Below are positions 11,537-24,657 of a stretch of DNA of 64,000 nt, in pieces (the first letter of the stretch is position 1; the number at the start of each line of letters is the position of its first letter). Position numbers and translations under genes: made by a program. The notes beneath the pieces were generated by a model. The model saw only the letters and a program-made list of their open reading frames with translations. It had not been told where the DNA came from and did not search any database. This DNA is from an uncultured Bacteroidales bacterium (GTDB lineage Bacteria; Bacteroidota; Bacteroidia; Bacteroidales; ML635J-15): NCBI GenBank assembly GCA_905234755.1, contig CAJOIT010000007.1, forward strand, positions 50 to 64,049, written 5' to 3'.

Positions 11537-12904
11537 ATGCTCGAAAGAAAATTTACACAATATTTGGAGGACTTCATAGAGAACGAACCTAATAAAATAC
11601 TGTTAGTCAATGGCGCTAGGCAGATAGGAAAGTCATACATAATACGCTATGTAGGGAAGAAACTTTTTAAGCATTTTGTTGAGATAAACCTCAAGGAAGA
11701 CAAAGAGGGCGAGCAAATTTTTGCCGATGTTCAGACCACAAGCGACTTGTATATGCGGCTAAGCAACTATCATTCAAAGCATTTGGGAGACAAGACGGAC
11801 ACCCTTATCTTCCTTGACGAGATACAAAGCTACCCTCACCTCATGACTATGCTAAAATTCCTTAACGAAGAAGGAAAATACCGCTACATTGCAAGCGGTT
11901 CGCAACTTGGTGTAGCATTGTCGCAAACGCCATCGGTCCCTATCGGCAGCATCACAATAAAACAGATGTATCCGCTTGATTTTGAGGAATTCCTCTGGGC
12001 TACGGGCATTGGAAAAGAATGGATAGACCACATAAGAGAATCGTTCCAGAAGGAAGAAAGTCTGGATAAAAGCACCCACGAGTTGCTGCTTAAGCGATTC
12101 CAGTATTACCTGCTTATTGGCGGTTTGCCCGAAGCCGTTAACAAGTATTTGGAGGACAGAAATATAGTGCGCGTAAGGACAGTTCACAAGGACATCCACG
12201 AACTATATCGCATCGATGCTTCGCAATACGACGAGGAACACAAACTGAAGATTCGCAGGATTTACGACCTGATTCCAAGTAATCTGGAGAACAAGAAGAA
12301 GCGTGTGGTTTATAACAAGATTGAAAACAAGACTGGCAAGCACTTTTCCGACTATGCCGACGAATTTGAATACCTTACCAATTCGGGCGTTGCATTAGAT
12401 GTGTTGGCAATCAGCAATCCGCGTTTCCCCTTGGCGGAATCGGAGCAAAAACGACTTGTAAAATTGTACCTGAACGACATCGGGCTGCTCACTAACCTTC
12501 TTTATGGTCTCAATGTCAATGCAGTGTTGCAGGACATCAGAAGTATAAATCTCGGAACTGTTTATGAATCTGCCGTAGCACAGGAACTTGCAGCCCACCA
12601 GTTCAAACTTCATTATTACGACAACAAGCAAAAAGGCGAAGTTGATTTTCTGATAGACGACTACAATCGGCTTCAGGTATTGCCTTTGGAAATAAAATCG
12701 GGCAAGGACTACACCGAGCATAGTGCGCTGACAAAATTCCTTGAGACGCCCGAATATGGAATCGGCAGGGCAATAGTCTTTTCTAACGAACAGCAAGTTT
12801 ACAAAAAGAAGGGCGTTACCTATATGCCTATCTATTACTGCATGTTCCTTCAAAACTCATCTGACAACGACACTATAATTTTGCCGGAATTGGAATCTGT
12901 TTAG
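11537..12904 (+). CDS. AAA+ ATPase, AAA_14/DUF4143 family
   Basis: 455 aa. It has Walker A NGARQIGKS and Walker B LIFLDEIQ, with the long C-terminal region typical of DUF4143 ATPases. Confidence 0.8.
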   Translation: MLERKFTQYLEDFIENEPNKILLVNGARQIGKSYIIRYVGKKLFKHFVEINLKEDKEGEQIFADVQTTSDLYMRLSNYHSKHLGDKTDTLIFLDEIQSYPHLMTMLKFLNEEGKYRYIASGSQLGVALSQTPSVPIGSITIKQMYPLDFEEFLWATGIGKEWIDHIRESFQKEESLDKSTHELLLKRFQYYLLIGGLPEAVNKYLEDRNIVRVRTVHKDIHELYRIDASQYDEEHKLKIRRIYDLIPSNLENKKKRVVYNKIENKTGKHFSDYADEFEYLTNSGVALDVLAISNPRFPLAESEQKRLVKLYLNDIGLLTNLLYGLNVNAVLQDIRSINLGTVYESAVAQELAAHQFKLHYYDNKQKGEVDFLIDDYNRLQVLPLEIKSGKDYTEHSALTKFLETPEYGIGRAIVFSNEQQVYKKKGVTYMPIYYCMFLQNSSDNDTIILPELESV

Positions 12905-13083
12905 ACGGACTGCTGACCATTAGTATTGGCTCGTTAATCCAGTAAATACAGTTGGGAGGCCATAGGTTGCGATATTATACTCAACTCGCTGTTGAATAAG
13001 GCTGTGGAGTACGCGATGGAGATGTATTGATTTTCTGATAATTGTTTGTATTACAACAATTTGAATAATTTATTACTCTTTCC

Positions 13084-13165
13084 AAAAACGGAATAAGTGG
13101 TAATTTTTACCCCTCAAAAAATGGAATAAGTGTTTTTTTGTTTTGAAAAAGCGTTTATCTATATC
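13084..13165 (+). repeat. Second copy of the last two 33-bp units plus a decayed promoter (duplicate of 11429-11516)
   Basis: aaaaacggaataagtggtaatttttacccctcaaaaaatggaataagtgtttttttgttttgaaaaagc is near-identical to 11429-11495. Cores at 13090 and 13123 are again 33 nt apart. The -7 box is degenerate (tatctata). Confidence 0.85.
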
Positions 13166-13225
13166 CGAACATTATATTGTTTAAAACTAAACTCGCCTTT
13201 TGTTGTGTTTTATTATAATAATAAG

Positions 13226-13233
13226 TATGTTTG
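13226..13233 (+). promoter_or_regulatory. -7 promoter box (TAtgTTTG) for the five-gene operon
   Basis: Exact TAnnTTTG match 25 nt upstream of the ATG at 13258. Confidence 0.5.
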
Positions 13234-13257
13234 CAGTTTGGAATAATTTGCATAGAG

Positions 13258-14349
13258 ATGTCGGATGTGGTAAAAAATAAAAGGCAAGGGAAACTTCCTA
13301 AAATAGAAGTCGTTGATCTCTTTTGCGGGATTGGCGGTCTTAGTTATGGAATGAAGTCAGCTGGTTTTGATATTCGTGCTGGATATGATTTGGATTGGAC
13401 CTGCCAATATGCATACGAAACAAATACAGGAGGAAAGTTTTTTTATAAAGATGTTAATTCTGTGACAGGAGATGAAATAAAAAAACTATATTCAAAAAAG
13501 AAAAATATCATTAGAGTTCTTGCTGGTTGTGCCCCTTGTCAGCCATTTTCTTCGTATGCATTTAAAAACAAGAAAAAGGACGAAAACAAATATAATCTAT
13601 TATATGAATTTGGACGGTTAGTGAAAGAAGTTCATCCAGACATTGTTACAATGGAAAATGTGCCTGCCATTGCTTCTTTTAAATTAAAATCTGTCTTGTC
13701 TGATTTTGTGAACACTTTAAAATCAGAAAATTACGAAGTGTCCTATAAAGTAGTTTACTGTCCTAATTATGGCGTTCCGCAAACGAGAAAGCGCATGGTC
13801 TTATTGGCTTCGAGATTAGGAGAAATTGAGTTGATACCACCAACACATTCAAAAGACAACTACGTAACCGTGAAAGACGCAATCGGGAATCTTCCAGCGT
13901 TAGCAGCAGGAGAAAGTTGTTCTTCCGATCCGTTGCACAGATGTCGAGCCTTATCCCCTTTGAATAAGCAGAGAATGTTAGCAACACCTTATGGTGGAAG
14001 TTGGAGGGATTGGCCGGAAGAATTACTTTTGGAATGCCATAAGAAGGAAGAAGGCAAGAGCTTCGGTAGTGTATATGGACGAATGGTATGGGAGGAACCT
14101 GCGCCGACAATGACAACCCTTTGTACAGGTATTGGTAACGGGCGTTTTGGACACCCAGAACAAAACAGAGCCATCTCTGCTAGAGAAGCAGCATTGTTCC
14201 AGACATTTCCTACATCCTATAAGTTTTTTCCTGATGAGCAGAGTGTTTCTCTGTCAAAAGCATCTCGATATATCGGGAATGCCGTACCGCCCAGATTAGG
14301 CGAAATAATTGCAGAAAGTATAAAACAACATATTAGAACACACAAATAG
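13258..14349 (+). CDS. DNA (cytosine-5)-methyltransferase (MTase 1)
   Basis: m5C MTase motifs are present: I DLFCGIGG, IV PCQPFS, VI ENV, VIII QTRKR, X GNAVPP. The start is moved to ATG 13258 because the track's 13231 start lies inside the promoter box. Confidence 0.9.
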   Translation: MSDVVKNKRQGKLPKIEVVDLFCGIGGLSYGMKSAGFDIRAGYDLDWTCQYAYETNTGGKFFYKDVNSVTGDEIKKLYSKKKNIIRVLAGCAPCQPFSSYAFKNKKKDENKYNLLYEFGRLVKEVHPDIVTMENVPAIASFKLKSVLSDFVNTLKSENYEVSYKVVYCPNYGVPQTRKRMVLLASRLGEIELIPPTHSKDNYVTVKDAIGNLPALAAGESCSSDPLHRCRALSPLNKQRMLATPYGGSWRDWPEELLLECHKKEEGKSFGSVYGRMVWEEPAPTMTTLCTGIGNGRFGHPEQNRAISAREAALFQTFPTSYKFFPDEQSVSLSKASRYIGNAVPPRLGEIIAESIKQHIRTHK

Positions 14350-14351
14350 AA

Positions 14352-16460
14352 ATGGATGACGATCAAGTTTTAAAATGGCGATTTGATGTTAGCACATTCA
14401 GGTTAATTGGGCGGGATTTGATAACAGACCGAGTAACTGCTTTGTTTGAACTAGTGAAGAATTGTTATGATGCAAACGCGTCGGAGGCTACAATCATTTT
14501 TAATAATGTAGGTTTGGACAAAAAAGGAGAATCATCTATCTATATTAAAGACGATGGAATAGGTATGTCTTTTACAGATATCAAAGACAAATGGATGGTA
14601 ATAGGCACATCTAATAAACGTTCCAATCCATATAGCCCAGAGCCGTTTTCCCGGAAATGTGTGGGAGAAAAAGGAATTGGCCGATTTGCAGTAGATAAAT
14701 TAGGAGACAAAGTCAACATTATCACTAAACAAAAAAAAGGAAAACAATGGTTGAATGTTGAAATAGATTGGGAAGCATATTACAAACAGAGTTTTGAGAG
14801 TAATGAAATAAAACTCTTTACTGATATAGAAAACCATTACGAGTATTATGATTCCGAGGATATTAATGAGCATGGAACAACGCTGAAAATAACAAATATT
14901 AGGGAAATTTGGTTAGAAAATGACATAAAGCGCTTTATTGAAGAGGCGGGGAAACTAGTCTCTCCTTTTGCGAACATGAGTTATCCTATGCAAATCAAGG
15001 TTATTGCACCAGAATACGGCATAGAAACAATCGCAACTAAAAACATGGATGATGTTAGCATTGCTACCATCAGTTTTTCACTAGGTTTTGATATCACTTC
15101 TCAAACACAAGACAGTGCCTATTTTGATGAAGAGACAGGAGAAATAAAAATCCGAACTATTCCAATGAAGTCGTTTGGCGGGATTAAAATGAAAGTATAT
15201 TATTTTGATGAAGCCGCTCGTCGACGTTATCGTAAAGAATTTCCTAATAATCAAATAGATGGCGTAAAAATATATCGCGATAGTATTATTACCACTCCAT
15301 TTGCCGAAAATGAGTCTGAGGATGATAAGAAACGTGATGTTTTAGGAATTGACAAACGATTATGGATGAATATCTTTGATCGAGTAAGTACCCGAGAAAT
15401 CATAGGAATTGTTGAAATCACAAAAAAAGACAATCCAATGATCATTGACGCGACAAACAGGCAGGATTTTGTTGACAATGAACAATATCGCGACCTTAAA
15501 GAATTTATCATCACACAATTAGATGCAATTGAAGGTTATAAAAAGTATTCAAGGAAAAAGAAAAGAAAAGAAAACAGCAACACATTAGAATCCGCTGGTC
15601 AAGAGATTCAAAGCTTTATTTCCTCAGTAGAGAATATTGCCGAACAAAACCCTAATCTAAAAGACAGTCTTGCTCCTGTAGTTGAGCAAGCCAAGAAGAC
15701 CGGAAAAGCAGTAAGAACTGCAATTAAAGAAAAGAAAGAAGCGGAAGAAGAGTTTGCGCGAAAAGAGAGTGTTTATATGAGTATTATGTCTTTGCAAGAA
15801 TATGCAATTCATATTACACATGCTGTCCGTACCACATTGAATAAAATCCGTGATAGGGTTGAATATTTTAACATGTTCTATCCAGATCCTACGGAAGAAG
15901 ATATATTTAAGCGTTACGCAAAAGAAATGTATGTGGAATTTTTGAATGTTAATAAAGTGATAGATTATATGTTAAGTTATTCACAATCAAACATTCAACC
16001 CGAAGATATTGAACTTGATGAAACAATTCGCGAAATATTTGTCGAATATACGCCATTGTTCAACTCCAATGGAATCAAAACAGATCTTATTATCCCTGAA
16101 AAGATAATGCTTAGGAACACCCGTCGACAGTTTTTTAGAGATATCTTGCAAAACCTTATTGACAATTCCATTAAAGCCGTAAGAGATGCCGAACAAAAAA
16201 TAATTCGTTGTACGGTATCAGTCGAAAAAGAAGAATTAATAATTCTGTTATCTGATACGGGAAATGGAATCCCACAAGAAAAAAGAACATGGGTTTTTGG
16301 AGTTTATAATACAACCACCCAAGATCAAGGTGGTGCTGGCATAGGTTTATACATTGTAAAAACAAGGGTGGAATCTTTAAAAGGAAAAGTATTTGTAACA
16401 GATAGTGAGTTTGGTGAAATTGGTACAACAATAAGAATCGAATTACCATTTAAAAAATAA
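14352..16460 (+). CDS. Dual-GHKL protein: N-terminal MORC/Hsp90-like ATPase (HATPase_c_3-like) fused to a HisKA-like H-box and a histidine-kinase ATPase
   Basis: 702 aa. N-terminal Bergerat motifs are ELVKNCYDA, DDGIGM and GEKGIGRFA. A lysine/glutamate-rich coiled region follows. The H-box is ITHAVRTTL (His490, codon 15819-15821; compare SHELRTPL). The C-terminal kinase motifs are the N-box NLIDNSIKA, G1 DTGNGIP and G2 GGAGIGLYIV. No TM segments were seen. Confidence 0.7.
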   Translation: MDDDQVLKWRFDVSTFRLIGRDLITDRVTALFELVKNCYDANASEATIIFNNVGLDKKGESSIYIKDDGIGMSFTDIKDKWMVIGTSNKRSNPYSPEPFSRKCVGEKGIGRFAVDKLGDKVNIITKQKKGKQWLNVEIDWEAYYKQSFESNEIKLFTDIENHYEYYDSEDINEHGTTLKITNIREIWLENDIKRFIEEAGKLVSPFANMSYPMQIKVIAPEYGIETIATKNMDDVSIATISFSLGFDITSQTQDSAYFDEETGEIKIRTIPMKSFGGIKMKVYYFDEAARRRYRKEFPNNQIDGVKIYRDSIITTPFAENESEDDKKRDVLGIDKRLWMNIFDRVSTREIIGIVEITKKDNPMIIDATNRQDFVDNEQYRDLKEFIITQLDAIEGYKKYSRKKKRKENSNTLESAGQEIQSFISSVENIAEQNPNLKDSLAPVVEQAKKTGKAVRTAIKEKKEAEEEFARKESVYMSIMSLQEYAIHITHAVRTTLNKIRDRVEYFNMFYPDPTEEDIFKRYAKEMYVEFLNVNKVIDYMLSYSQSNIQPEDIELDETIREIFVEYTPLFNSNGIKTDLIIPEKIMLRNTRRQFFRDILQNLIDNSIKAVRDAEQKIIRCTVSVEKEELIILLSDTGNGIPQEKRTWVFGVYNTTTQDQGGAGIGLYIVKTRVESLKGKVFVTDSEFGEIGTTIRIELPFKK

Positions 16461-16465
16461 ACAGT

Positions 16466-17083
16466 ATGAATTATAACTTGGTATTTATTGATGACAATAT
16501 GAGAGAAGGATTAGACAATCCTTTCGTACGATCAATAGGTAAATTCAAGGAGGATGCAAAACTATCGGTATTCGTAGATCCACAAGAAGGATTGAACTAT
16601 GTTCTAAACAATTTGAACTGTAGAATGATAGTTTTTCTTGATTGCAAATTTGACGGATACGGATTACAAGGTATAAATGTTCTAAAAAAAATCCGTGAAC
16701 AAACCTCCTTGTTATACATTGTGATGATGTCTGCTAATGCAATAAGTCAAATAGCGGGATTGGACATAATTGAAATGATAAACGAAGACTTTATTTGGTT
16801 CTTTGATCGCAATAACGGAACGGTTAAGGATGCGTGCGATTTAATTGATAAAATTAAAAACTTGTGGACAACACGTTTTGATTGTGTGCTTGAACAATGG
16901 ATTCTCCGACATCCTGAAGATGCTGATAAATATGCTTATAGAGAACTTGGTGGCAAATCTTATACATGGTCAGAAATGTTGTCAGAATTGCGACATCAAT
17001 CTGCCGTGGGCAAGGTGTTTGAGGGGATGGTGAATGATTATTATATATATCGTTTTACAAAATTGGAAGATTCAAATGGCTAA
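16466..17083 (+). CDS. Receiver (REC)-domain protein with uncharacterised ~80-aa C-terminal domain
   Basis: 205 aa. It has the beta1 acidic pair VFIDDN, a phospho-acceptor-like Asp59 in VFLDCKFDG (codon 16640-16642), and a beta4 Ser/Ala MMSANA. I could not see a DNA-binding output domain. Confidence 0.6.
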   Translation: MNYNLVFIDDNMREGLDNPFVRSIGKFKEDAKLSVFVDPQEGLNYVLNNLNCRMIVFLDCKFDGYGLQGINVLKKIREQTSLLYIVMMSANAISQIAGLDIIEMINEDFIWFFDRNNGTVKDACDLIDKIKNLWTTRFDCVLEQWILRHPEDADKYAYRELGGKSYTWSEMLSELRHQSAVGKVFEGMVNDYYIYRFTKLEDSNG

Positions 17084-17672
17084 TGTCTTGATTGCTTGTA
17101 ACAATGCTGATTCTGTAGATTTACATAATTTTCTACAATCTTGTGCTGATTTGGCTAGACAACAATGTGTGGACTTCAATCATAATTATTCTTTTGTAGA
17201 ACCACCTCATTTAACAGAACAAGAAGTGATATCTCCAATGCCATATCATCAAATTTGTTTAATTGCGGCTCATGGTGACGCTGATGGTGTGTATAATGAA
17301 AATCATGAAGATGTTGTAACAACTAGAACAATCAATTATAATTTTGAAGGCAAGGGGTTTTATTCTGTGTCATGTTTGTGCGCTCAAAATTTGCGTATAG
17401 AACTTATGCGAATAGGGTTGAAGTTGTTTGTTGGCTATAATATCCCTTTTTGTGTAGGAGATGATGAAGATTTGTTTTGCGAATGCGCATTGGAAGGTTT
17501 TAAGAGTATTCTTAATGGAAACTCAAAGAAGGTTGCGCACAAAGCAATGTTGGATAAATATGATGAAGTGATTAAGACTGCATCATTTGAAGATAAAATT
17601 AAATTGCTCCGAAATAAAGAACATCTTGTTTTTGATGGTGAAGATAATCTTTTGTTGTCCGATTTAATATAG
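17076..17672 (+). CDS. Small CHAT/caspase-like (clan CD-like) protein, putative
   Basis: 198 aa from ATG 17076, which overlaps the upstream stop as ATGGCTAA. A hydrophobic strand + His-Gly (ICLIAAHGD) and a hydrophobic strand + Ser/Leu-Cys (FYSVSCLCA) are spaced like the clan CD dyad. The following LKLFVGYNIPFCVGDDEDLF...GFKSILNGNSKKVAHKAM resembles the post-Cys region of CHAT domains. Confidence 0.4.
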   Translation: MANVLIACNNADSVDLHNFLQSCADLARQQCVDFNHNYSFVEPPHLTEQEVISPMPYHQICLIAAHGDADGVYNENHEDVVTTRTINYNFEGKGFYSVSCLCAQNLRIELMRIGLKLFVGYNIPFCVGDDEDLFCECALEGFKSILNGNSKKVAHKAMLDKYDEVIKTASFEDKIKLLRNKEHLVFDGEDNLLLSDLI

Positions 17673-17676
17673 CAAC

Positions 17677-18357
17677 ATGGACTGGCGATTAGATAACATT
17701 TGTGTATATTGTGGAGCCCCAGCAGATACTCTGGATCATGTTCCTTCAAAATGTTTCTTAGATGAACCATATCCTAAGAATCTGAGAAGTGTGCAATGCT
17801 GCGGAAAGTGTAATCATAAGTTTTCTTCCGATGAGGAGTATGTTTCTTGTCTAATAGATTGTATGAAAGAAAAAACAAAGAACCCTAATATGATAAAAAG
17901 GGAGAAAACAAGGAAAACTTTATTGCACTCTACTAAGTTATTAAAAAGAATAACAGGACAATTTCGAATGTTTGCTGACATTGAAGTTTGTGATATAGAG
18001 AAGAGTCGTTTGGAATTAGTTATGTACAAATTGGCTTTTGGACATTTGGCTTATGAGAATAATTCTATAAATTGGGATTCAGAATATAAAGTAGATATGT
18101 GGTTGTTAGAAAATATGTCTAAACCTTTATTGAATGATTTTGAAACGCCATATTATGGAGATGTTGTTCCTGAAATTGGTAGTAATAGTTTGTCTCACAT
18201 TCTTGTTGGATTAGACGATTATGTAAATTATAGTAATTGGATAGTGGTTCAGGATGGAAGATATAGGTATTGCGTTTCTCCTGATAGCACAACAGTAAAA
18301 TTTGTAATCGCAGAGTATTTGGCAGTAGAAGTATCAGTTAAAGGCGATAAAAATTAA
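17677..18357 (+). CDS. HNH endonuclease-domain protein
   Basis: 226 aa. The N-terminal treble-clef HNH reads CVYCG..ADTLDHVPSK...CCGKCNHKF. The C-terminal ~150 aa are unassigned. Confidence 0.65.
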   Translation: MDWRLDNICVYCGAPADTLDHVPSKCFLDEPYPKNLRSVQCCGKCNHKFSSDEEYVSCLIDCMKEKTKNPNMIKREKTRKTLLHSTKLLKRITGQFRMFADIEVCDIEKSRLELVMYKLAFGHLAYENNSINWDSEYKVDMWLLENMSKPLLNDFETPYYGDVVPEIGSNSLSHILVGLDDYVNYSNWIVVQDGRYRYCVSPDSTTVKFVIAEYLAVEVSVKGDKN

Positions 18358-18435
18358 ATTGTGGTTATTGTGAATAATATATTGATTCAGATAAGATTTT
18401 TAATGGATTTTGCTAATAATAATGCTCAATAAATG

Positions 18436-18443
18436 TATATTTG
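18436..18443 (+). promoter_or_regulatory. -7 promoter box (TAtaTTTG) for the second MTase/REase cassette
   Basis: Exact TAnnTTTG match 21 nt upstream of ATG 18464. Confidence 0.5.
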
Positions 18444-18463
18444 CAGATTAAAAATAGATTGAT

Positions 18464-19525
18464 ATGACAAATAAAAAATATAAAGTTTTGGATTTATTCT
18501 GTGGTTGCGGAGGTTTGTCTAAAGGCTACGAAATGGCTGGGTATGACATTTTATTAGGAGTTGATTTTAATAAACCCGCGTTAGAGACATATCAGAAAAA
18601 TCACAAAGGAAGTAAAGCGTTGTATGCAGATTTGTCTGACGATAAAGCTTTTGACGAAATAGATAATGCAGTAAAAGGTAATAAAATAGATGTTGTCATC
18701 GGAGGTCCTCCCTGTCAAGGATTTAGTTTGACAGGGAGACGGCAATTTGATGATTCGCGGAACAAGTTGTACCTTGCTATGATTGAGGCTGTACGAAGAT
18801 ATAATCCCAAGGCGTTTATGATTGAAAATGTACCAGGAATGGCTACTCTGTATAATGGAGAAGTGAAGGCTGAAATTTTGAAACGCTTTACTGAAATGGG
18901 ATATAAAATGAATTTCAAGATAGTTTGTGCTGCTGATTATGGAGTTCCTCAAATGAGGCGGAGACTTGTTTTTATTGGAATAAAAGATTCTGAGCAAGAA
19001 TATCAGTTCCCGCAACCGTATTTGCTTCCAGACAATTATGTTACATGTAAAGATGCAATAAGTGATTTGCCGTCGTTAGTTGATGAGTTGGGAGATGAAA
19101 TATCATCTTATTCAGGAGAACCGCAAACCGATTATCAGAAAATGATGCGTGGAAACAATAAACTGTTGTATAATCATGTTGCTGTTAATCATAAGGATTT
19201 CGTAAAAGCTACGATTGCTCTAGTTCCAGATGGGGGCAATTATAAAGATTTGCCAGGAGGTGTCGGTGAAAGTAGAAAATTTCATGTTGCATGGACTCGT
19301 TATTGTAGTTATAAACCATCAGGCACAATAGATACTGGACATAGAAATCATTTTCATTATAAATGGAATCGTTGCCCAACAGTAAGAGAGAATGCAAGAT
19401 TACAATCTTTTCCAGATGATTTTGTATTTTATGGAAATAGGACACAACAGAATCGACAGGTTGGAAATGCAGTTCCTCCTTTAATGGCAAAGGCTATCGC
19501 AGAAGAATTAAAGAAGTATTTGTAG
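18464..19525 (+). CDS. DNA (cytosine-5)-methyltransferase (MTase 2)
   Basis: Motifs DLFCGCGG, PPCQGFS, ENVPG, QMRRR and GNAVPP. Confidence 0.9.
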   Translation: MTNKKYKVLDLFCGCGGLSKGYEMAGYDILLGVDFNKPALETYQKNHKGSKALYADLSDDKAFDEIDNAVKGNKIDVVIGGPPCQGFSLTGRRQFDDSRNKLYLAMIEAVRRYNPKAFMIENVPGMATLYNGEVKAEILKRFTEMGYKMNFKIVCAADYGVPQMRRRLVFIGIKDSEQEYQFPQPYLLPDNYVTCKDAISDLPSLVDELGDEISSYSGEPQTDYQKMMRGNNKLLYNHVAVNHKDFVKATIALVPDGGNYKDLPGGVGESRKFHVAWTRYCSYKPSGTIDTGHRNHFHYKWNRCPTVRENARLQSFPDDFVFYGNRTQQNRQVGNAVPPLMAKAIAEELKKYL

Positions 19526-19531
19526 TTTGTT

Positions 19532-20785
19532 ATGAAATTAAATACTATAGATTTATTTGCTGGTTGTGGTGGCATGACTGATGGGTTTGCTCAGGAAGGA
19601 CATTTCCGTGTACTTGGCTGTGTAGAATGGGAAGCTCCAATGTGTGAAACACTTATTAATCGCCTAAAAAACAAGTGGGGACATAATAATGCAAATAATG
19701 AAGTAATTAGATTCGATATTCAGAGAACGGAAGAACTATTTTCTGGATTTTTTGATGGAGAATATGGTATTCATAACGGACTTGATTCTTTGGTGAAAAA
19801 TCAAAAAGTAGATGCGATAATTGGCGGTCCACCATGTCAAGCCTATTCTATTGCAGGCAGGATAAGAGATGAAAATGGTATGCGAGATGATTATCGAAAT
19901 TTCCTTTTCGAAAGTTATATAAAGGTTGTGTCCCATTATCAGCCAGATTTTTTTGTATTTGAAAATGTTGTAGGATTATTAAGTGCTTCGCCAACAGGTG
20001 AGCCTATTACTAATATTATACGTAGAACATTTAGTGAGGCTGGATATAGAATTATATCAAATTTAAAGGATGCTCTTTTTGATGTTGCTGATTTTGGTGT
20101 TCCACAACATCGCCGTCGTGTAATTATTCTTGGAATACGAGAAGCGTCTTTTAATTGTGGACATGAAAACTTTATGGATGATAAGTGCAGTCAGATTTTA
20201 CAAGATTTTTACTATAATATAATGCCGTCATTTAAGACGAAACAATTTTCTACAGTTGAAGATGCAATAAATGATTTGCCTAAATTATTTCCTTCTGAAG
20301 AAATTATCAAATTTGATGGTAGGAAATATTCTCATTATCCAATAGATGGTGGTGGTTATTTAAATCACATTCCTCGTTTTCATAGTAAAAGAGATATAAA
20401 AGTATTCAGAATGTTAGCAGAAGATATAGAATCAGGAAAATTTGAATATGTGAGTACAGAAAAGTTAAAGAATTTATATACAGAAATTACAGGTAAGAAA
20501 AGCAATGTTCATAAATATTATGTTCTACGCAAAAATGCTCCTAGTAATACTATTCCTGCTCATTTATATAAAGATGGGATGCGTCATATACATCCTGATT
20601 CCAAACAAGCTCGTTCAATAACAGTAAGAGAAGCCGCTAGATTGCAGTCATTTGATGATGATTATTCTTTTCTTGGAGCAATGATGTCCCAGTACAAAAT
20701 GATTGGAAATGCTGTTCCTCCAAAATTTGCAAAAATTATTGCCAGTGGATTGTATAAACTTATTTTAAAATATAAAACAAAATAA
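19532..20785 (+). CDS. DNA (cytosine-5)-methyltransferase (MTase 3)
   Basis: Motifs DLFAGCGG, PPCQAYS, ENV, QHRRR and GNAVPP, with a long variable (TRD) region. Confidence 0.9.
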   Translation: MKLNTIDLFAGCGGMTDGFAQEGHFRVLGCVEWEAPMCETLINRLKNKWGHNNANNEVIRFDIQRTEELFSGFFDGEYGIHNGLDSLVKNQKVDAIIGGPPCQAYSIAGRIRDENGMRDDYRNFLFESYIKVVSHYQPDFFVFENVVGLLSASPTGEPITNIIRRTFSEAGYRIISNLKDALFDVADFGVPQHRRRVIILGIREASFNCGHENFMDDKCSQILQDFYYNIMPSFKTKQFSTVEDAINDLPKLFPSEEIIKFDGRKYSHYPIDGGGYLNHIPRFHSKRDIKVFRMLAEDIESGKFEYVSTEKLKNLYTEITGKKSNVHKYYVLRKNAPSNTIPAHLYKDGMRHIHPDSKQARSITVREAARLQSFDDDYSFLGAMMSQYKMIGNAVPPKFAKIIASGLYKLILKYKTK

Positions 20786-20789
20786 AAGT

Positions 20790-21812
20790 ATGTCACAGTA
20801 TTATATTCATAAAGTTGGAAGTCAAGAAATGGGTTCTGTGGAACGAAATAATGGTGTGCCACAGCGTGGACGTTACTTTCTTATATCAAAAAGATGTTTA
20901 GATTTTTTCCCGCATCTTTCTTCTGTTGCATTGAATGATAAGGCGCCAGTGTTTATTGTGCCGACATTCGCAGAAAATAATATCAAAGTGCTTTGCACAA
21001 TAGATTATCATAATCAGAAACATTCGCTTATTGATTATTCTGGGAATAATCCTCGTGATGAAGTTCGATTGTATATGAATCAGCAAATAGACCCTAATTT
21101 ATATTTTAAAACAGATGACCTTGCTGTATTTGAAAGGTTTGTTATGGAAGGGGATGTTGTTTATTCGCTTACTCGTATAAGACCAATGGAAGAAGGGTAT
21201 GATTTTCTACTTCAACATTTATCATCGAATGACAGAGGTCCTTATTATTCAAATGCCATATATGATGGGGTTCTTGATTTTATTCAACAGCCTTTAATAA
21301 ATGAGGATACACCTATTGCTATAAGTACTGATGCTGAGGAATATTTGGAATCTGCGTCTTCTGATATACTATCACATGAAGATGACGAAACTGTGATTAT
21401 TGAGCAGCAAATGGGAGGTCAGTTGTTTAATAGTGTTACATTTCGCCAATTTGTCCTATTCGCTTATGATTATAAGTGTGCTATAACCCGAAAAGTTATC
21501 CGTTATAATGATTTATGTAATCTTGAAGCTGCGCACATTAAGCCTCAGGCTCATAATGGACAATTCTTACCATGCAATGGTATTGCAATGAGTCGCGATA
21601 TGCATTTTGCTTTTGATAAGGGATTTTTTACGATTGATCGCAATTATAATGTTTTGGTGGCTGATGTGTTAAGAGGTACTGATTTTTATAAGGAATATAA
21701 TGGTCTTAGGATATTTGTGCCTCAAGTTGATTATTATAAACCTAATATTGCATTTCTTGAATATCATCGTAGAAACATATTTCAAACATTTGCCCAAATA
21801 AGGCATTTGTAA
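20790..21812 (+). CDS. HNH_2-family restriction endonuclease with N-terminal putative DNA-binding domain
   Basis: 340 aa. The C-terminal block YKCAIT...LEAAHIKP...NGIAMSRDMHFAFDKGFFTID is the HNH_2 (PF13391-like) pattern seen in R-M nucleases. The N-terminal RGRYFLISK...FFPHL resembles B3/EcoRII-N-like effector domains (weak). Confidence 0.7.
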   Translation: MSQYYIHKVGSQEMGSVERNNGVPQRGRYFLISKRCLDFFPHLSSVALNDKAPVFIVPTFAENNIKVLCTIDYHNQKHSLIDYSGNNPRDEVRLYMNQQIDPNLYFKTDDLAVFERFVMEGDVVYSLTRIRPMEEGYDFLLQHLSSNDRGPYYSNAIYDGVLDFIQQPLINEDTPIAISTDAEEYLESASSDILSHEDDETVIIEQQMGGQLFNSVTFRQFVLFAYDYKCAITRKVIRYNDLCNLEAAHIKPQAHNGQFLPCNGIAMSRDMHFAFDKGFFTIDRNYNVLVADVLRGTDFYKEYNGLRIFVPQVDYYKPNIAFLEYHRRNIFQTFAQIRHL

Positions 21813-22030
21813 AATTGTTTCTAGATATTTTTACAGATATGAACTATCCGCAATTTCCGAATAGTTCAATCTTTTTTTCATCCCAAATCTACATCCAAAT
21901 CTCATTTCCACCGAAGCGTTAGTTTTTTCAAATTCGATTGCGGGGTGGAAAATAAATGGAGAGCTATTTATGAAATATTATGTATTTTTGTGCGATAAAA
22001 ATGCCGATCCTGTAGCGATAAATAAATAGT

Positions 22031-23068
22031 ATGACTAATGAGAATAGAAACATATTGCTAAAATTGCTTGAGCAACATCAAGAGTCAGGCATATCGGAGC
22101 AGATAGACTACAACAAATTCTATTTGTATTCCATTATCACGCATTCTACGGCTATAGAAGGCTCAACAGTTACTGAAGTTGAAGCTATTTTGCTTTTCGA
22201 CGAAGGTATTACAAGTAGCAAGCGCACAGTGGTCGAGCAGATGATGAACCTTGATTTAAAGGCAGCATACGAATATGGGATGCAATGGATTTTGCGTCAT
22301 GAACCAATTACGGTCGAATGGCTTGTCCTGCTTGCATCAAAAGTTATGGCTCGCACCGGTAGTGAGTATCATTCTGCAAGTGGAGACTTTTCTGCTGCAA
22401 AAGGTGAGTTGCGCAAACTGAATGTTACTGCAGGATTTGGCGGCAAGTCGTATATGTCGTATCAGAAAGTGCCAGCTCGTCTTGAAGCTTTTTGCGAAGA
22501 ATTGAACAGACGGAGAAAGGCAATTGACGTGTCGGATGTGAGCGCTATATACGACCTTAGTTTCTGGGCTCATTACGAATTGGTGACCATTCATCCGTGG
22601 GCAGATGGAAATGGCAGGATGAGTCGTTTGCTTATGAACCTGCTCCAGATTGAGTTTGGCGTTTTGCCGACCAAAGTGTTAAAAGAAGACAAGGAGGCAT
22701 ACATACAGGCACTAGTGGATACTCGCGAAAACGACGACATAAATATTTTTCTCGATTGTATGTCTCGCCTTCACATCGCTCATCTTCAGAGCGATATAAA
22801 GCAATACGAGGTGGCTTTGCAAGATGAAGTGGACAGAAAAGGTGGACAGAAAAAGCAAAAGGTGGACAGAAAAAGTGGACAGAAAACACGCGATGCCATT
22901 ATCGCTCTCATTTCTAGCAATCCGCACATTACTACAACCCAAATGTCTGAGTCGCTTGGAATCAACCGAAGTGCACTTTCAAAGCATATCAAGCGTATGC
23001 AGGAAGATGGTATCATCCGTCGTGTTGGACCCGACAAAGGCGGTTTCTGGGAGGTGATTAGCGATTGA
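22031..23068 (+). CDS. Fic/Fido-domain protein with C-terminal winged-helix domain
   Basis: It carries the Fic motif HPWADGNGRMSRLL (HxFx[DE]GNGR). The C-terminal HTH-like region is ITTTQMSESLGINRSALSKHIKRMQEDGII. Confidence 0.85.
   Translation: MTNENRNILLKLLEQHQESGISEQIDYNKFYLYSIITHSTAIEGSTVTEVEAILLFDEGITSSKRTVVEQMMNLDLKAAYEYGMQWILRHEPITVEWLVLLASKVMARTGSEYHSASGDFSAAKGELRKLNVTAGFGGKSYMSYQKVPARLEAFCEELNRRRKAIDVSDVSAIYDLSFWAHYELVTIHPWADGNGRMSRLLMNLLQIEFGVLPTKVLKEDKEAYIQALVDTRENDDINIFLDCMSRLHIAHLQSDIKQYEVALQDEVDRKGGQKKQKVDRKSGQKTRDAIIALISSNPHITTTQMSESLGINRSALSKHIKRMQEDGIIRRVGPDKGGFWEVISD
22829..22886 (+). repeat. Four copies of GTGGACAGAAAA inside the Fic linker
   Basis: Copies lie at 22829, 22842, 22862 and 22875. 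They encode VDRKGGQKKQKVDRKSGQK. Confidence 0.9.
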
Positions 23069-23348: not shown

Positions 23349-24545
23349 CTAATACATCATTCCTAAAAGCCAAAGCGGAAGTTTTTTCCCTATGGGAGTT
23401 TCGATATTGTCGGCCAATATGTAGGAGTTTGGAATGTCGGCAATCTGAGAAAAATCCTTGTCGATACCGCCTACTTCTACCACCCACTTGCCATCAATCC
23501 TAAAGTCGCCATTTTTGTTGTATTCAACTGTATGTCTGGCAGACAACTGGTTCACAGCAAACGCTTCCCTAATAGTTCCTATATTGCTCTTGGATGTTGC
23601 AAGTGCATATATAAGATTGGTGTTGTCAAGATAAATCTTGTCGGGCTTTTGGAGTTTGCCAACCGATTTTGCATCGTAATATAATTGCTGTATTATGTGC
23701 GCATCGGCAAGATTTCTAAGGTAGGCGATAATAGTGTTTCTGTTTATGCCAGTATATACCGATAGTTTGCTTATGTCAACGTCAAATGGCACAGTTGTCG
23801 ATAAAATGTAAAGCAATGCCTTTATTTTCCGAATATTAGACGGATCAACCTTGCAGATTTGTGTAAGTTCCACATCAATAGTGAAATTGACCACTTGCTC
23901 TATTATCTGGTAGTAAGTTGACTTGTTTTTGCTGTAGAACGGATAGTAGCCGAATTTTAGGTATTCGTTGAAATATTCTATCGGTCTGCACTTCCCGTTC
24001 ACTTCGGTGCAGATGTTCTGTGGATTGCAAAGTATTGTCTCCAAAGATGCTGGCATTATCCTTATCTCCTTGTATAACCCGAGGTATTCCCTAAACGACA
24101 ATCCTTGCATTTCGTACGACACGCACCTCCGCGACAGGTCGGCATCGCCCATAAGTAGGTTAAGCAACGATGATGCACTAAGCACTATCCGCATTTCGGG
24201 ATAGAGGTCGTATATTTCCTTTATTTCCTTGCTCCAATTTTCATATTTGTGAGCCTCGTCAAGGAAAAGGTGCTTTCCGCCTTGCTTGTAGAAATCGCTG
24301 GCTAACGAAAGTAAACTGTGCGAAGCAAAGTACATCGTATCCAAAGAGCAATACAGGACTTCTCTGCTGTATGGCTGATAGTTGAGTTTAATGTATTGCA
24401 GCATAAGTGTGGTTTTGCCGACACCCCTCGGTCCCCGCAGTGCTATCAGATGCGCATCCCAGTCAATGTCGTCCATTATGCTTCTCACAAAGTTAGTCTT
24501 TGTGTTTCTAATCAATATGTCGTGTTTCTCGAAAAGTGTTTCCAT
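23349..24545 (-). CDS. AAA+ ATPase, AAA_14/DUF4143 family
   Basis: 398 aa from METLFEKHD (ATG complement at 24543-24545). It has Walker A GPRGVGKTT and Walker B HLFLDEAH. The track's longer start (24623) would translate the promoter and repeat array. Confidence 0.8.
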   Translation of the reverse strand: METLFEKHDILIRNTKTNFVRSIMDDIDWDAHLIALRGPRGVGKTTLMLQYIKLNYQPYSREVLYCSLDTMYFASHSLLSLASDFYKQGGKHLFLDEAHKYENWSKEIKEIYDLYPEMRIVLSASSLLNLLMGDADLSRRCVSYEMQGLSFREYLGLYKEIRIMPASLETILCNPQNICTEVNGKCRPIEYFNEYLKFGYYPFYSKNKSTYYQIIEQVVNFTIDVELTQICKVDPSNIRKIKALLYILSTTVPFDVDISKLSVYTGINRNTIIAYLRNLADAHIIQQLYYDAKSVGKLQKPDKIYLDNTNLIYALATSKSNIGTIREAFAVNQLSARHTVEYNKNGDFRIDGKWVVEVGGIDKDFSQIADIPNSYILADNIETPIGKKLPLWLLGMMY

Positions 24546-24581
24546 AAATAAATTTTTTGCAAAGATATAAATGCTTTTTAT

Positions 24582-24657
24582 AAATAGCAAATATTTATCA
24601 AAAATAGTATTTGCAAATAGCAAAATCTATTCGGAAATGCTATTTATAAATAGCAAA
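24582..24657. repeat. Three direct repeats phased every 33 bp, core AAATAGCAAA
   Basis: Cores lie at 24582, 24615 and 24648, exactly 33 nt apart. The outer two sit in 22-nt near-identical units (atgcttttta/atgctatttataaatagcaaat). The array is directly upstream of the minus-strand -7 box TAtcTTTG (complement of 24560-24567). Confidence 0.85.

Follow-up and report, generated by a model that had tools for sequence, protein, structure and literature searches.

The window analyzed here comprises 64,000 nucleotides (nt) from an uncultured Bacteroidales bacterium (GTDB lineage Bacteroidales; ML635J-15), namely positions 50 to 64,049 of the forward strand of contig CAJOIT010000007.1 in assembly GCA_905234755.1. 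It carries on the + strand four closely packed genes, which encode successively a Dcm-type C5-cytosine DNA methyltransferase (13231-14349), a 702-amino acid (aa) kinase with two GHKL ATPase domains (14352-16460, ATG start), a 205-aa receiver (REC) protein (16466-17083) and a 198-aa protein termed X (17076-17672). The Dcm stop lies 2 nt before the kinase start, a 5-nt gap separates the kinase and REC genes, and the start of X overlaps the REC stop by 8 nt. The methyltransferase, the first gene of the cassette, matches the Pfam DNA_methylase family (E = 3.8e-60) and the PADLOC model MTase_II (E = 3.6e-93); its true start is probably the ATG at 13261, and its homologues are called at 357-369 aa. 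We give about an even chance to the reading in which the 702-aa double-GHKL kinase serves as the sensor of a mobile, defensive two-component cassette linked to a methylase and made up of Dcm, this kinase, REC and X.

The kinase opens with a GHKL (Bergerat) ATPase domain of the HATPase_c_3 type (residues 1-185; 14352-14906, +), which Pfam places at residues 29-175 with 79.5 bits (cut-off 25; E = 3.2e-22). It ends with a second GHKL fold, the catalytic and ATP-binding (CA) domain (residues 549-702; 15996-16460, +), called by Pfam as HATPase_c at residues 593-701 (E = 3.2e-24) and also as HATPase_c_5. An earlier note on this DNA had claimed two GHKL folds in a single soluble polypeptide, and this is borne out: the motifs quoted for both domains, the H-box and a basic run are all present where the note had placed them, and the protein has no transmembrane segment, the highest mean Kyte-Doolittle hydropathy over 19 residues being 0.82. 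In the N-terminal domain, the motifs are E33..N37..D40-A41, D67-D-G-I-G-M72 and G105-E-K-G-I-G-R-F112, with the codons of the catalytic Glu33 at 14448-14450, of Asn37 at 14460-14462 and of Asp67 at 14550-14552. Among 58 family representatives, 22-50% identical to the window kinase, no variation is seen at E33, N37, D40, D67, G71, G105, K107, G108 and G110, and at least 90% keep G69; the GHKL motif IV (GT) is found in the conserved G175-T176, in addition to motifs I-III. In the C-terminal domain can be found the N-box N601-LIDNSIKA-609, the G1 box D635-TGNGIP-641 and the G2 box G660-GAGIGLYIV-669, in which N605, G663 and G665 are invariant and D635, G637, G639 and G661 at least 90% conserved, so that the boxes N, G1, F and G2 of a CA domain are all retained (N605, D635xGxG639, F649, G661xG663xG665). 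Considering these invariant or near-invariant motifs, both ATP sites look catalytically competent.

Between the two ATPase domains lie a predicted beta-rich, transducer-like middle domain (residues 186-375; 14907-15476, +), a long charged helical linker from the ATPase head to the next domain (residues 376-475; 15477-15776, +), and a dimerization and histidine phosphotransfer (DHp) domain (residues 476-548; 15777-15995, +) supported by phmmer alignment to solved kinases. The middle domain is supported by the AlphaFold2 (AF2) model, Foldseek matches and conserved columns (W187, P205, G276, Y308, D310, P316, D329, G352, N361, T368 and R370). The AF2 model is that of a monomer, with a predicted local distance difference test score (pLDDT) of 69.7; its head and CA domain are good, residues 160-300 being mostly at pLDDT 75-92, and its coiled coil and DHp domain are poor. 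The linker helices assigned by DSSP (377-432 and 434-509) score low in pLDDT, as can be expected when a dimeric coiled coil is modeled as a monomer. Submitted to Foldseek, the model gives two equal classes of matches, i.e., modules of a GHKL domain with a middle domain, and kinase cores such as WalK, HK853, CusS and ZraS (~230 aligned columns; E = 1e-12 to 1e-11). The linker harbors a basic run (K397-K406) and a Lys/Glu-rich helix (IKEKKEAEEEFARKE, residues 458-472). The KKxxRKKKRK patch singled out by the earlier note is therefore present in the window kinase, but it is not general in the family, where the aligned segment contains ~22% Lys/Arg for a net charge of only ~+1. As a conserved DNA-binding element this patch was ruled out, the run being lineage-specific; likewise, a GapR_DNA-bd match in the linker (E = 0.003) is below the Pfam cut-off and was dismissed as a coiled-coil artefact. 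A chance open reading frame (ORF) or an assembly fusion is ruled out by hundreds of full-length homologues.

The protein encoded next to the kinase consists of a REC domain (residues ~1-130), supported by a family profile, and a C-terminal domain of ~70 aa (16466-17083, +), with the codon of the phospho-acceptor Asp59 at 16640-16642. Taken as a single sequence, it matches Pfam Response_reg weakly (E = 1.4e-3), while a profile of 18 of its relatives matches solved REC domains at E = 1.1e-12. In 72 proteins encoded directly after family kinases, D59 never varies and D10 is kept in at least 90%; the acidic pair D9-D10 is present, and S89 stands at the Ser/Thr position of strand β4. Judged by these residues and profiles, the 205-aa protein is a real receiver, as the earlier note had supposed. 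Its C-terminal domain has no Pfam or PDB match and no detectable helix-turn-helix (HTH).

X, which the earlier note missed, is the cassette partner that best defines this branch. It has no match in Pfam, PADLOC, NCBIfam or PHROGs, and an identical 198-aa protein exists in public data. In 18 diverse homologues, H66, G67, C100 and G120 are invariant (codons of His66 at 17271-17273 and of Cys100 at 17373-17375). The AF2 structure of X, predicted from 29 database homologues, is confident (pLDDT 96.3, pTM 0.92), and by Foldseek it resembles the SAVED-CHAT protease 8tl0 (E = 7e-7), gingipain R, separase, caspases 3/4/7/11 and the Craspase protease, with a probability of 1.0 for 8tl0, 1cvr, 5fc2 and the caspases. 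Strand 60-64 leads into H66-G67 and strand 94-98 into C100, in the same order as in clan CD peptidases, and one member of the X family matches Peptidase_C25 (E = 6e-4). On the strength of the invariant His-Gly and Cys, the confident model, the Foldseek matches and the strand positions, X can be described as a minimal stand-alone caspase/CHAT-like protein and is a predicted clan CD cysteine protease. With SAVED-CHAT (8tl0), Craspase Csx29 (7zoq), gingipain, separase and caspases, it has in common the fold and the order and spacing of His-Gly...Cys; unlike the SAVED-CHAT and Craspase-type proteases, it consists of the catalytic domain alone, with no SAVED, TPR or other sensor domain. No X-like domain was found in the 360-450-aa receivers of other branches, even with filters off. 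In the literature, we found neither a report of a caspase-like partner for methylase-linked double-GHKL kinases nor a case of a caspase-like protease activated by a phosphorylated receiver.

Kinases of this family are widespread. More than 120 clusters (90% identity) of proteins of ~700 aa, 64-97% identical, harbor both ATPase domains. At a threshold of E<1e-30, an exhaustive HMMER scan retrieved 531 clusters (50% identity); among the best 150, the majority aligned end to end. At least 587 loci can be found in species-representative genomes. The family occurs in Bacteroidota, Pseudomonadota, Bacillota, Actinomycetota, Cyanobacteria, Chloroflexota, bacteria of the candidate phyla radiation (CPR) and archaea. 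The gene neighborhood was surveyed at 84 loci using crude ORF calls and iterated hidden Markov models. All loci with a close relative of the window kinase, where the contig reaches the neighboring genes, have the order Dcm-kinase-REC-X, hereafter type A, and the same order is found at four distant loci, in Fusibacter, Nitrosopumilus, Clostridium and Streptococcus. Outside Bacteroidota, the type-A cassette can be found in Thiomicrorhabdus, a spirochaete, Clostridium, Streptococcus and Nitrosopumilus. X was found at 22 loci, all of them with type-A kinases, and nowhere else in the survey, and wherever the contig of a type-A locus extends far enough, Dcm adjoins the kinase. More generally, the receiver is encoded directly downstream of the kinase in 72 of 82 kinase loci. 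Sister branches keep the kinase-REC pair with an Eco57I-type N6-adenine (N6A) methylase in place of Dcm; their second downstream gene encodes an HNH nuclease in 10 of 53 cases, and otherwise metallo-beta-lactamase-fold (MBL-fold) proteins, HhH-GPD glycosylases or unknown proteins. A methylase stands beside the kinase in every branch sampled, either a C5 enzyme (46 of the 84 loci) or, in the others sampled, an Eco57I-type N6A enzyme. Such a constant methylase together with an exchangeable terminal gene is the pattern of sensor-adaptor-effector defence systems.

The cassette is located at different chromosomal sites in different genomes, and relatives were found on 78 plasmids, 54 of which are conjugative; one of these, from Stenotrophomonas, has a Dcm directly upstream. 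Campylobacter plasmids of ~50 kb account for 41 of the 78 plasmid matches, with a "sensor histidine kinase" matching the head and middle domain only (residues 7-393). Additional genes can be found next to some relatives. In contigs with an identical X (L089 and L090), X is followed by an AAA_5 (McrB-like) gene of 621 aa, a 747-aa gene and a Vsr mismatch endonuclease, the latter fitting an active 5-methylcytosine methylase. In the contigs with a 91%-identical kinase (L085-L088; ~12-18 kb of L085), Dcm-kinase-REC-X is directly followed by a second, paralogous system that belongs to the same superfamily. Its products are an N6_N4 methylase, an HATPase_c_3+HATPase_c protein (743-751 aa), two proteins of 381 and 236 aa and, encoded between these two, a Dcm; one of these contigs has the second kinase split into 603 and 144 aa.

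Regarding phosphotransfer, no HisKA domain is called by Pfam in the kinase. By phmmer against the PDB, residues 415-701 align to the kinase cores 7z8n (E = 2.7e-12), KinB 3d36, WalK 4u7n, HK853 3dge and ZraS, with H490 on the phospho-acceptor His of 7z8n, 3d36, 4u7n and 3dge, so that the second GHKL domain belongs to a DHp-CA kinase core, as the earlier note had it. The H-box spans H487-ITHAVRTTLNKI-499, with the core T-H490-A-V-R-T-T-L and the codon of His490 at 15819-15821. H490 is kept in 53 of the 58 representatives and in 81 of 82 locus kinases, besides the window's own. The H-box is the canonical HisKA S-H-E-L-R-T-P-L in which Glu is replaced by Ala (A491); of the two HisKA hallmarks, the acidic residue at His+1 is absent and the Thr/Asn at His+4 is present (T494). 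This replacement goes with X: His+1 is non-acidic (A/I/M/V and similar) in 22 of 23 X-linked kinases, the sole one keeping His-Glu being that of Nitrosopumilus, whereas it is E/D in 51 of 60 other family members and non-acidic in 9. Thr at His+4 is retained in most Bacteroidota type-A kinases, including the window's. In four HisKA kinases, the acidic His+1 is needed for kinase but not for phosphatase activity, and Thr/Asn at His+4 is needed for phosphatase activity (Willett & Kirby, PMC3510030). Autophosphorylation on His490 is thus less safe than assumed.

It is this loss of the acidic His+1 that leads to considering a relay dominated by phosphatase activity. X-linked kinases would have lost efficient autokinase activity and, as ATP/ADP-bound phosphatases, would keep REC unphosphorylated; infection or a lost methylase signal would stop the phosphatase, REC would be phosphorylated by acetyl phosphate or another donor, and X would be released. 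The correlation of a non-acidic His+1 with X, the retained phosphatase-specific Thr at His+4 (PMC3510030) and the still invariant nucleotide-binding motifs of the CA domain all speak for such a guard. Against it, His490 itself is still conserved. HisKA_2/HWE kinases are active without an acidic His+1, so kinase activity need not be lost in the X-linked kinases, and the missing acidic residue does not prove that it is. We regard this alternative as rather unlikely.

The first GHKL domain occupies the position where kinases carry a sensor, which makes the earlier suggestion of an ATPase head serving as kinase input a reasonable one; the suggestion was already published in essence, and its references to MORC and to DNA clamping are too specific. 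A profile of residues 1-410 compared with the PDB matches PMS1/MutL (E = 2e-8) and the N-domains of Hsp90/HtpG, these PMS1, MutL and Hsp90 matches together spanning E = 2e-8 to 1e-5; the 60 top-ranking PDB sequence matches include no MORC entry. In the Foldseek head class, SMCHD1 (6mw7), MORC2 (9cdj, a MORC2-DNA complex) and Hsp90/GRP94/TRAP1 are aligned over 400-495 columns at E ~1e-11, with TM-scores of 0.2-0.33 and a root-mean-square deviation of 12-14 Å on the pLDDT-70 monomer model. In its predicted fold, the head therefore appears to match SMCHD1, MORC2 and Hsp90 about equally, and by sequence it is nearest to MutL/PMS1 and Hsp90. The MORC signature GhXhhpXXRhl of the S5 domain is absent, as assessed by a regular-expression search of the 702 aa that included loose and R/K versions; R370 and Y308-R309-D310 are conserved and are candidate basic fingers of a predicted S5-like domain. 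Since the signature is missing, the head is better viewed as a paraMORC-like GHKL and transducer-like module than as MORC proper. DNA clamping by such a head would be an analogy. The head and middle domain (residues 18-427) are also matched by the phage family phrog_6203 (E = 1e-21), and residues 307-408 by phrog_8137; deposited phage genomes contain three partial matches only, in unannotated faecal phage contigs.

The gene context is that of paraMORCs, with a DNA methylase in the operon, HNH, Vsr and McrB-like genes nearby and no helicase. MORC and paraMORC proteins and the window kinase have in common an intact GHKL domain followed by an alpha/beta middle domain (predicted in the window kinase), a cytosine methylase operon and HNH/Vsr genes nearby; the window kinase differs by the lack of the MORC signature and of a superfamily II helicase partner, and by its C-terminal extension, which is a kinase core. 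In the text that defines paraMORCs, as far as searched, a kinase core is not among the extensions of paraMORC1-5 (nuclease, TIR, HxH domain), the word "receiver" does not occur and histidine kinases are mentioned only in generic terms (Iyer, Abhiman & Aravind 2008, PMC2292703). The same paper places paraMORCs in restriction-modification (R-M) operons with HNH nucleases (PMC2292703), which bears on another reading, that of a MutL-like subunit of an ATP-dependent restriction enzyme, in keeping with how REBASE classifies such proteins. The head would recruit and license a nuclease on unmethylated DNA, either protein Y described below or an HNH_2 endonuclease (20790-21812), and the kinase half would be a dimerizing, ATP-binding module without phosphotransfer. 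In line with this, the N-terminal ~170 residues match the NCBIfam model of the BbrUII/HgiDII restriction enzymes (E = 1.2e-20), and PADLOC assigns the kinase to REase_II, its only PADLOC match. Moreover, R.EcoUTORF4938P, a putative Type II restriction enzyme of REBASE, has the same layout, namely an N-terminal GHKL domain, an unassigned middle and a C-terminal histidine kinase-like domain with N, D, F and G motifs (Orlowski & Bujnicki 2008, PMC2441816). However, the enzyme model is matched over residues 5-169 of 659 only, and both it and REase_II share nothing but the GHKL domain with the kinase. R.EcoUTORF4938P and R.HgiDII likewise have the N-terminal GHKL domain in common with the window kinase; proteins of this type have been filed as nucleases without evidence, and the window kinase is without a nuclease motif.

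An HNH-like gene, Y (226 aa; 17677-18357, +), does follow X in the window after a 4-nt gap. Its motif is C9-x2-C12 ... D20-H21 ... C42-x2-C45-N46; residues 4-57 weakly match HNH endonucleases in PHROG (E = 0.005-0.008), a weak PDC-M01B match is obtained in PADLOC, and neither Pfam nor the PDB gives a match. In contigs with an identical X, Y can be present (226/229 aa), truncated (148 aa) or absent, and it is missing from the 71%- and 91%-identical systems. Y is an accessory gene, outside the conserved cassette. No nuclease is conserved in type-A cassettes, and an invariant His490, a receiver with Asp59 and an intact CA site argue for selection on phosphotransfer, so that the restriction-enzyme reading seems improbable.

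The two-GHKL kinase architecture, which the earlier note presented as an unusual and unnoticed design, has already been described, in REBASE-derived proteins in 2008 (PMC2441816), in two-component-like elements in 2021 (PMC8011034) and, in a 2025 preprint, in the Ambrosia system (10.1101/2025.09.30.679545). Ambrosia from P. aeruginosa is encoded by AbrR-AbrA-AbrB-AbrC-AbrD, i.e., an XRE regulator, an N6A methylase, a HATPase kinase, a REC-winged HTH (wHTH) protein and an HNH protein; it protects P. aeruginosa from phages, and every gene as well as the receiver Asp is required (10.1101/2025.09.30.679545). Its expression is induced on infection, as shown by a reporter, its own methylation does not protect phages, and transcriptional control is favored by its authors (10.1101/2025.09.30.679545). 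Ambrosia is probably a relative of the window cassette, likened to it by gene order and by the description of AbrB. Both combine in one operon a DNA methylase, a soluble "sensor histidine kinase/Hsp90-like HATPase", a REC protein and a toxic-type last gene, and the Ambrosia order (N6A methylase, kinase, REC, HNH) can be found among homologues of the window kinase (L022, L046 and L055). They differ in the methylase (N6A in Ambrosia, C5 in the window), in the effector (HNH in Ambrosia, caspase-like in the window), in the receiver, which has a wHTH in Ambrosia, and in the XRE regulator of Ambrosia, for which the window has no gene, none being found among the ORFs at 12905-13230, upstream of Dcm. 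The window kinase is ~25% identical to Ambrosia-type kinases and differs from them at His+1; of the Ambrosia gene set, only the kinase and REC are shared. In the loci L001-L004, whose systems are 71% identical, two more genes lie upstream of the methylase, one for a 66-aa XRE/HTH_3 protein and one for a Couple_hipA-domain protein, an arrangement that recalls the HipB-like AbrR.

With Ambrosia in mind, the kinase and REC could act as a purely transcriptional regulator, which would merely induce the methylase and X upon a stress or phage cue through DNA binding by the REC tail. The wHTH of the Ambrosia receiver and the reporter that rises on infection are consistent with this (10.1101/2025.09.30.679545), as are the regulation of R-M proposed by Bellieny-Rabelo et al. 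(PMC8011034) and the extra domain of ~70 aa in the window receiver. Yet this tail, in which no HTH or other match is detected, does not align by hhalign to those of Ambrosia-type receivers, only the REC core doing so. The Ambrosia-type receivers of L022 and L046, scanned alone, give weak Response_reg matches that miss the 30.2-bit cut-off (E = 0.008 and 3e-4), and a DNA-binding domain is found in neither. Furthermore, the 8-nt overlap of REC and X, in one operon with the kinase, implies that X would be made together with its own regulator. A purely transcriptional role is unlikely in our opinion.

The elements described in 2021 consist of HATPase_c_3+HEF_HK+HATPase_c proteins with an adjacent Response_reg_2 protein and upstream C5 methylases, in 628 strains including Bacteroides (Bellieny-Rabelo et al. 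2021, PMC8011034). They were placed in the paraMORC lineage, and the HATPase_c_3 head was proposed as the sensor of a cytoplasmic two-component system tied to R-M (PMC8011034). The window cassette resembles them in the HATPase_c_3-DHp-HATPase_c architecture, solubility, an adjacent receiver-like gene, an upstream C5 methylase and Vsr/HNH_2 genes nearby. Membership of the Pfam families HEF_HK (PF19191) and Response_reg_2 (PF19192), as would be expected from that paper, was ruled out: neither model matches the window kinase or the 205-aa protein at E<=0.1, and neither is in the precomputed Pfam annotation of the more than 120 close homologues. In the wider family, PF19191 matches one of 58 kinases and PF19192 two of 72 receivers. 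In addition, HEF_HK is defined by His followed by Glu/Asp, where the window branch has His-Ala, and no caspase-like partner is identified in the paper, whereas the window has X. The window cassette is a distinct, uncharacterized variant, in which a predicted protease replaces the nuclease and the H-box is altered.

Two further systems offer precedents for parts of the design. In Detocs (DtcA-DtcB-DtcC), a kinase-to-REC relay fires a cell-killing effector, effectors are swapped, and the phospho-His and Asp are required (Rousset et al., 10.1101/2023.01.24.525353). The logic of a cytoplasmic kinase, a receiver and an effector, predicted for the window cassette, is common to both. Detocs has TPR sensing, a buffer receiver, a receiver-effector (PNP) fusion and no methylase, in contrast to the window cassette, which has no TPRs, a single stand-alone receiver and a separate effector gene and hence does not qualify as Detocs. 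In VcSduA, a GHKL ATPase with a clamp-like middle domain controls a defence nuclease, and the ATPase Glu is required (PMC12137116); its output is a fused PD-(D/E)xK nuclease, while that of the window protein would be a kinase relay.

The surroundings of the cassette are those of an island. Across 12000-22000 of the window, the GC content is 0.32-0.39, compared with 0.42-0.47 in the flanks, and the GC skew is strongly positive, which is consistent with a horizontally acquired defence island. Other R-M, SoFic and PDC-S01 genes are also found in this island. Two genes for AAA_14 + DUF4143 ATPases in opposite orientation, at 11537-12904 (+) and 23349-24623 (-), bracket it, the former matching the PADLOC candidate defence family PDC-S01 (E = 7e-185). 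A separate R-M-like unit, at 18464-21812, begins with two C5 methylases in tandem (353 and 417 aa) and ends with the 340-aa HNH_2 endonuclease already mentioned (20790-21812), whose C-terminal part resembles phosphorothioated-DNA-binding restriction enzymes (NCBIfam, E = 1.4e-20); this unit is not kept beside the kinase cassette in relatives. At 22031-23068 lies a gene for a Fic-domain protein with a C-terminal winged-helix domain (PADLOC SoFic, E = 4.9e-30). A promoter and terminator scan of 12800-22100, which does not cover Bacteroidetes promoters, gave counts at the level of shuffled sequence.

The location of the cassette bears on whether defence is its role at all. A housekeeping function in epigenetic or stress signaling, or post-segregational addiction, could be envisaged instead, in which methylation or ATP state would be reported, or cells losing the methylase would be killed or arrested, with no anti-phage role. 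Universal linkage to a methylase would suit this, and so would the Pectobacterium homologues noticed through in planta induction and the nucleoside triphosphate (NTP) sensing speculated upon by Bellieny-Rabelo et al. (PMC8011034). Against it stand the patchy, transfer-driven distribution across phyla and conjugative plasmids, the defence-island location and the anti-phage activity validated for a relative with the same logic (10.1101/2025.09.30.679545), so that such a role looks very improbable.

The defensive relay remains the favored reading, on several grounds. The two ATPase sites are intact, and at least 90% of the representatives keep H490; a receiver with an invariant Asp is encoded downstream in 72 of 82 loci, with tight gene packing; and type-A kinases are strictly linked to X and Dcm across distant taxa. 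Last genes and methylases are swapped in sister branches, as is typical of defence systems, and X has a caspase/CHAT fold with invariant His-Gly...Cys. The low-GC defence island, the varied chromosomal sites and the plasmid-borne relatives point in the same direction, as do the precedents of Ambrosia, with the same gene logic and an anti-phage effect, Detocs and VcSduA. According to this reading, the N-terminal GHKL and middle domains would form an active ATP-driven dimerizing module of the MutL/Hsp90/paraMORC kind, serving as cytoplasmic input and monitoring a DNA- or methylase-related state altered by incoming foreign DNA. The signal would pass through ~100 residues of coiled coil to the DHp domain. 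Phosphorylation of Asp59 on the co-translated receiver would then be controlled by whether His490 is phosphorylated, a state set with the help of the C-terminal CA domain. The receiver would in turn switch on X, either by direct contact via its private C-terminal domain or by induced expression, and cleavage of host or phage targets by X would lead to abortive infection or growth arrest.

Several observations weigh against this reading. The main caveat is the Ala at His+1 seen in the kinase sequence, at a position where four HisKA kinases need an acidic residue for their autokinase activity (PMC3510030). In the receiver, R115 stands where receivers usually have Lys, which is replaced in this sub-branch. 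X has only 198 aa, in which no domain for regulation or substrate binding can be recognized. The AF2 model of the kinase, a monomer at pLDDT 69.7, is moderate only. Kinship with Ambrosia, although probable, is argued from gene logic and not from the sequence of AbrB. Finally, a simple input in which unmethylated DNA is non-self is doubtful, considering that Ambrosia methylation did not protect phages and that its authors favor transcriptional control. More tentatively than the relay in general, it is possible that the cassette represents a distinct anti-phage system, in which a paraMORC-like head would read the DNA or methylation state and a His-Asp relay would activate a minimal caspase-like protease instead of a nuclease, maybe in a phosphatase-off mode, the kinase-specific acidic residue having been lost as X arrived.

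With 531 clusters, at least 587 loci and 78 plasmids, methylase-linked double-GHKL kinases rank among the unstudied modules of the soluble two-component type that are most widespread. One relative, Ambrosia, stops phages, and the window branch adds a testable twist to it: a four-gene cassette of ~4.4 kb, common in gut Bacteroidales, whose conserved last gene encodes a bare caspase-like domain. The correlated loss of a kinase-specific acidic residue constitutes a natural experiment on kinase versus phosphatase control, and the cassette is a compact system in which to ask what a MutL/MORC-like head detects. If the relay controls X, it would join R-M self-marking, His-Asp signaling and caspase-type effectors, which are usually studied apart; were this true, a two-component relay would for the first time have a protease as its output, and restriction-modification would have a relative armed with a protease.

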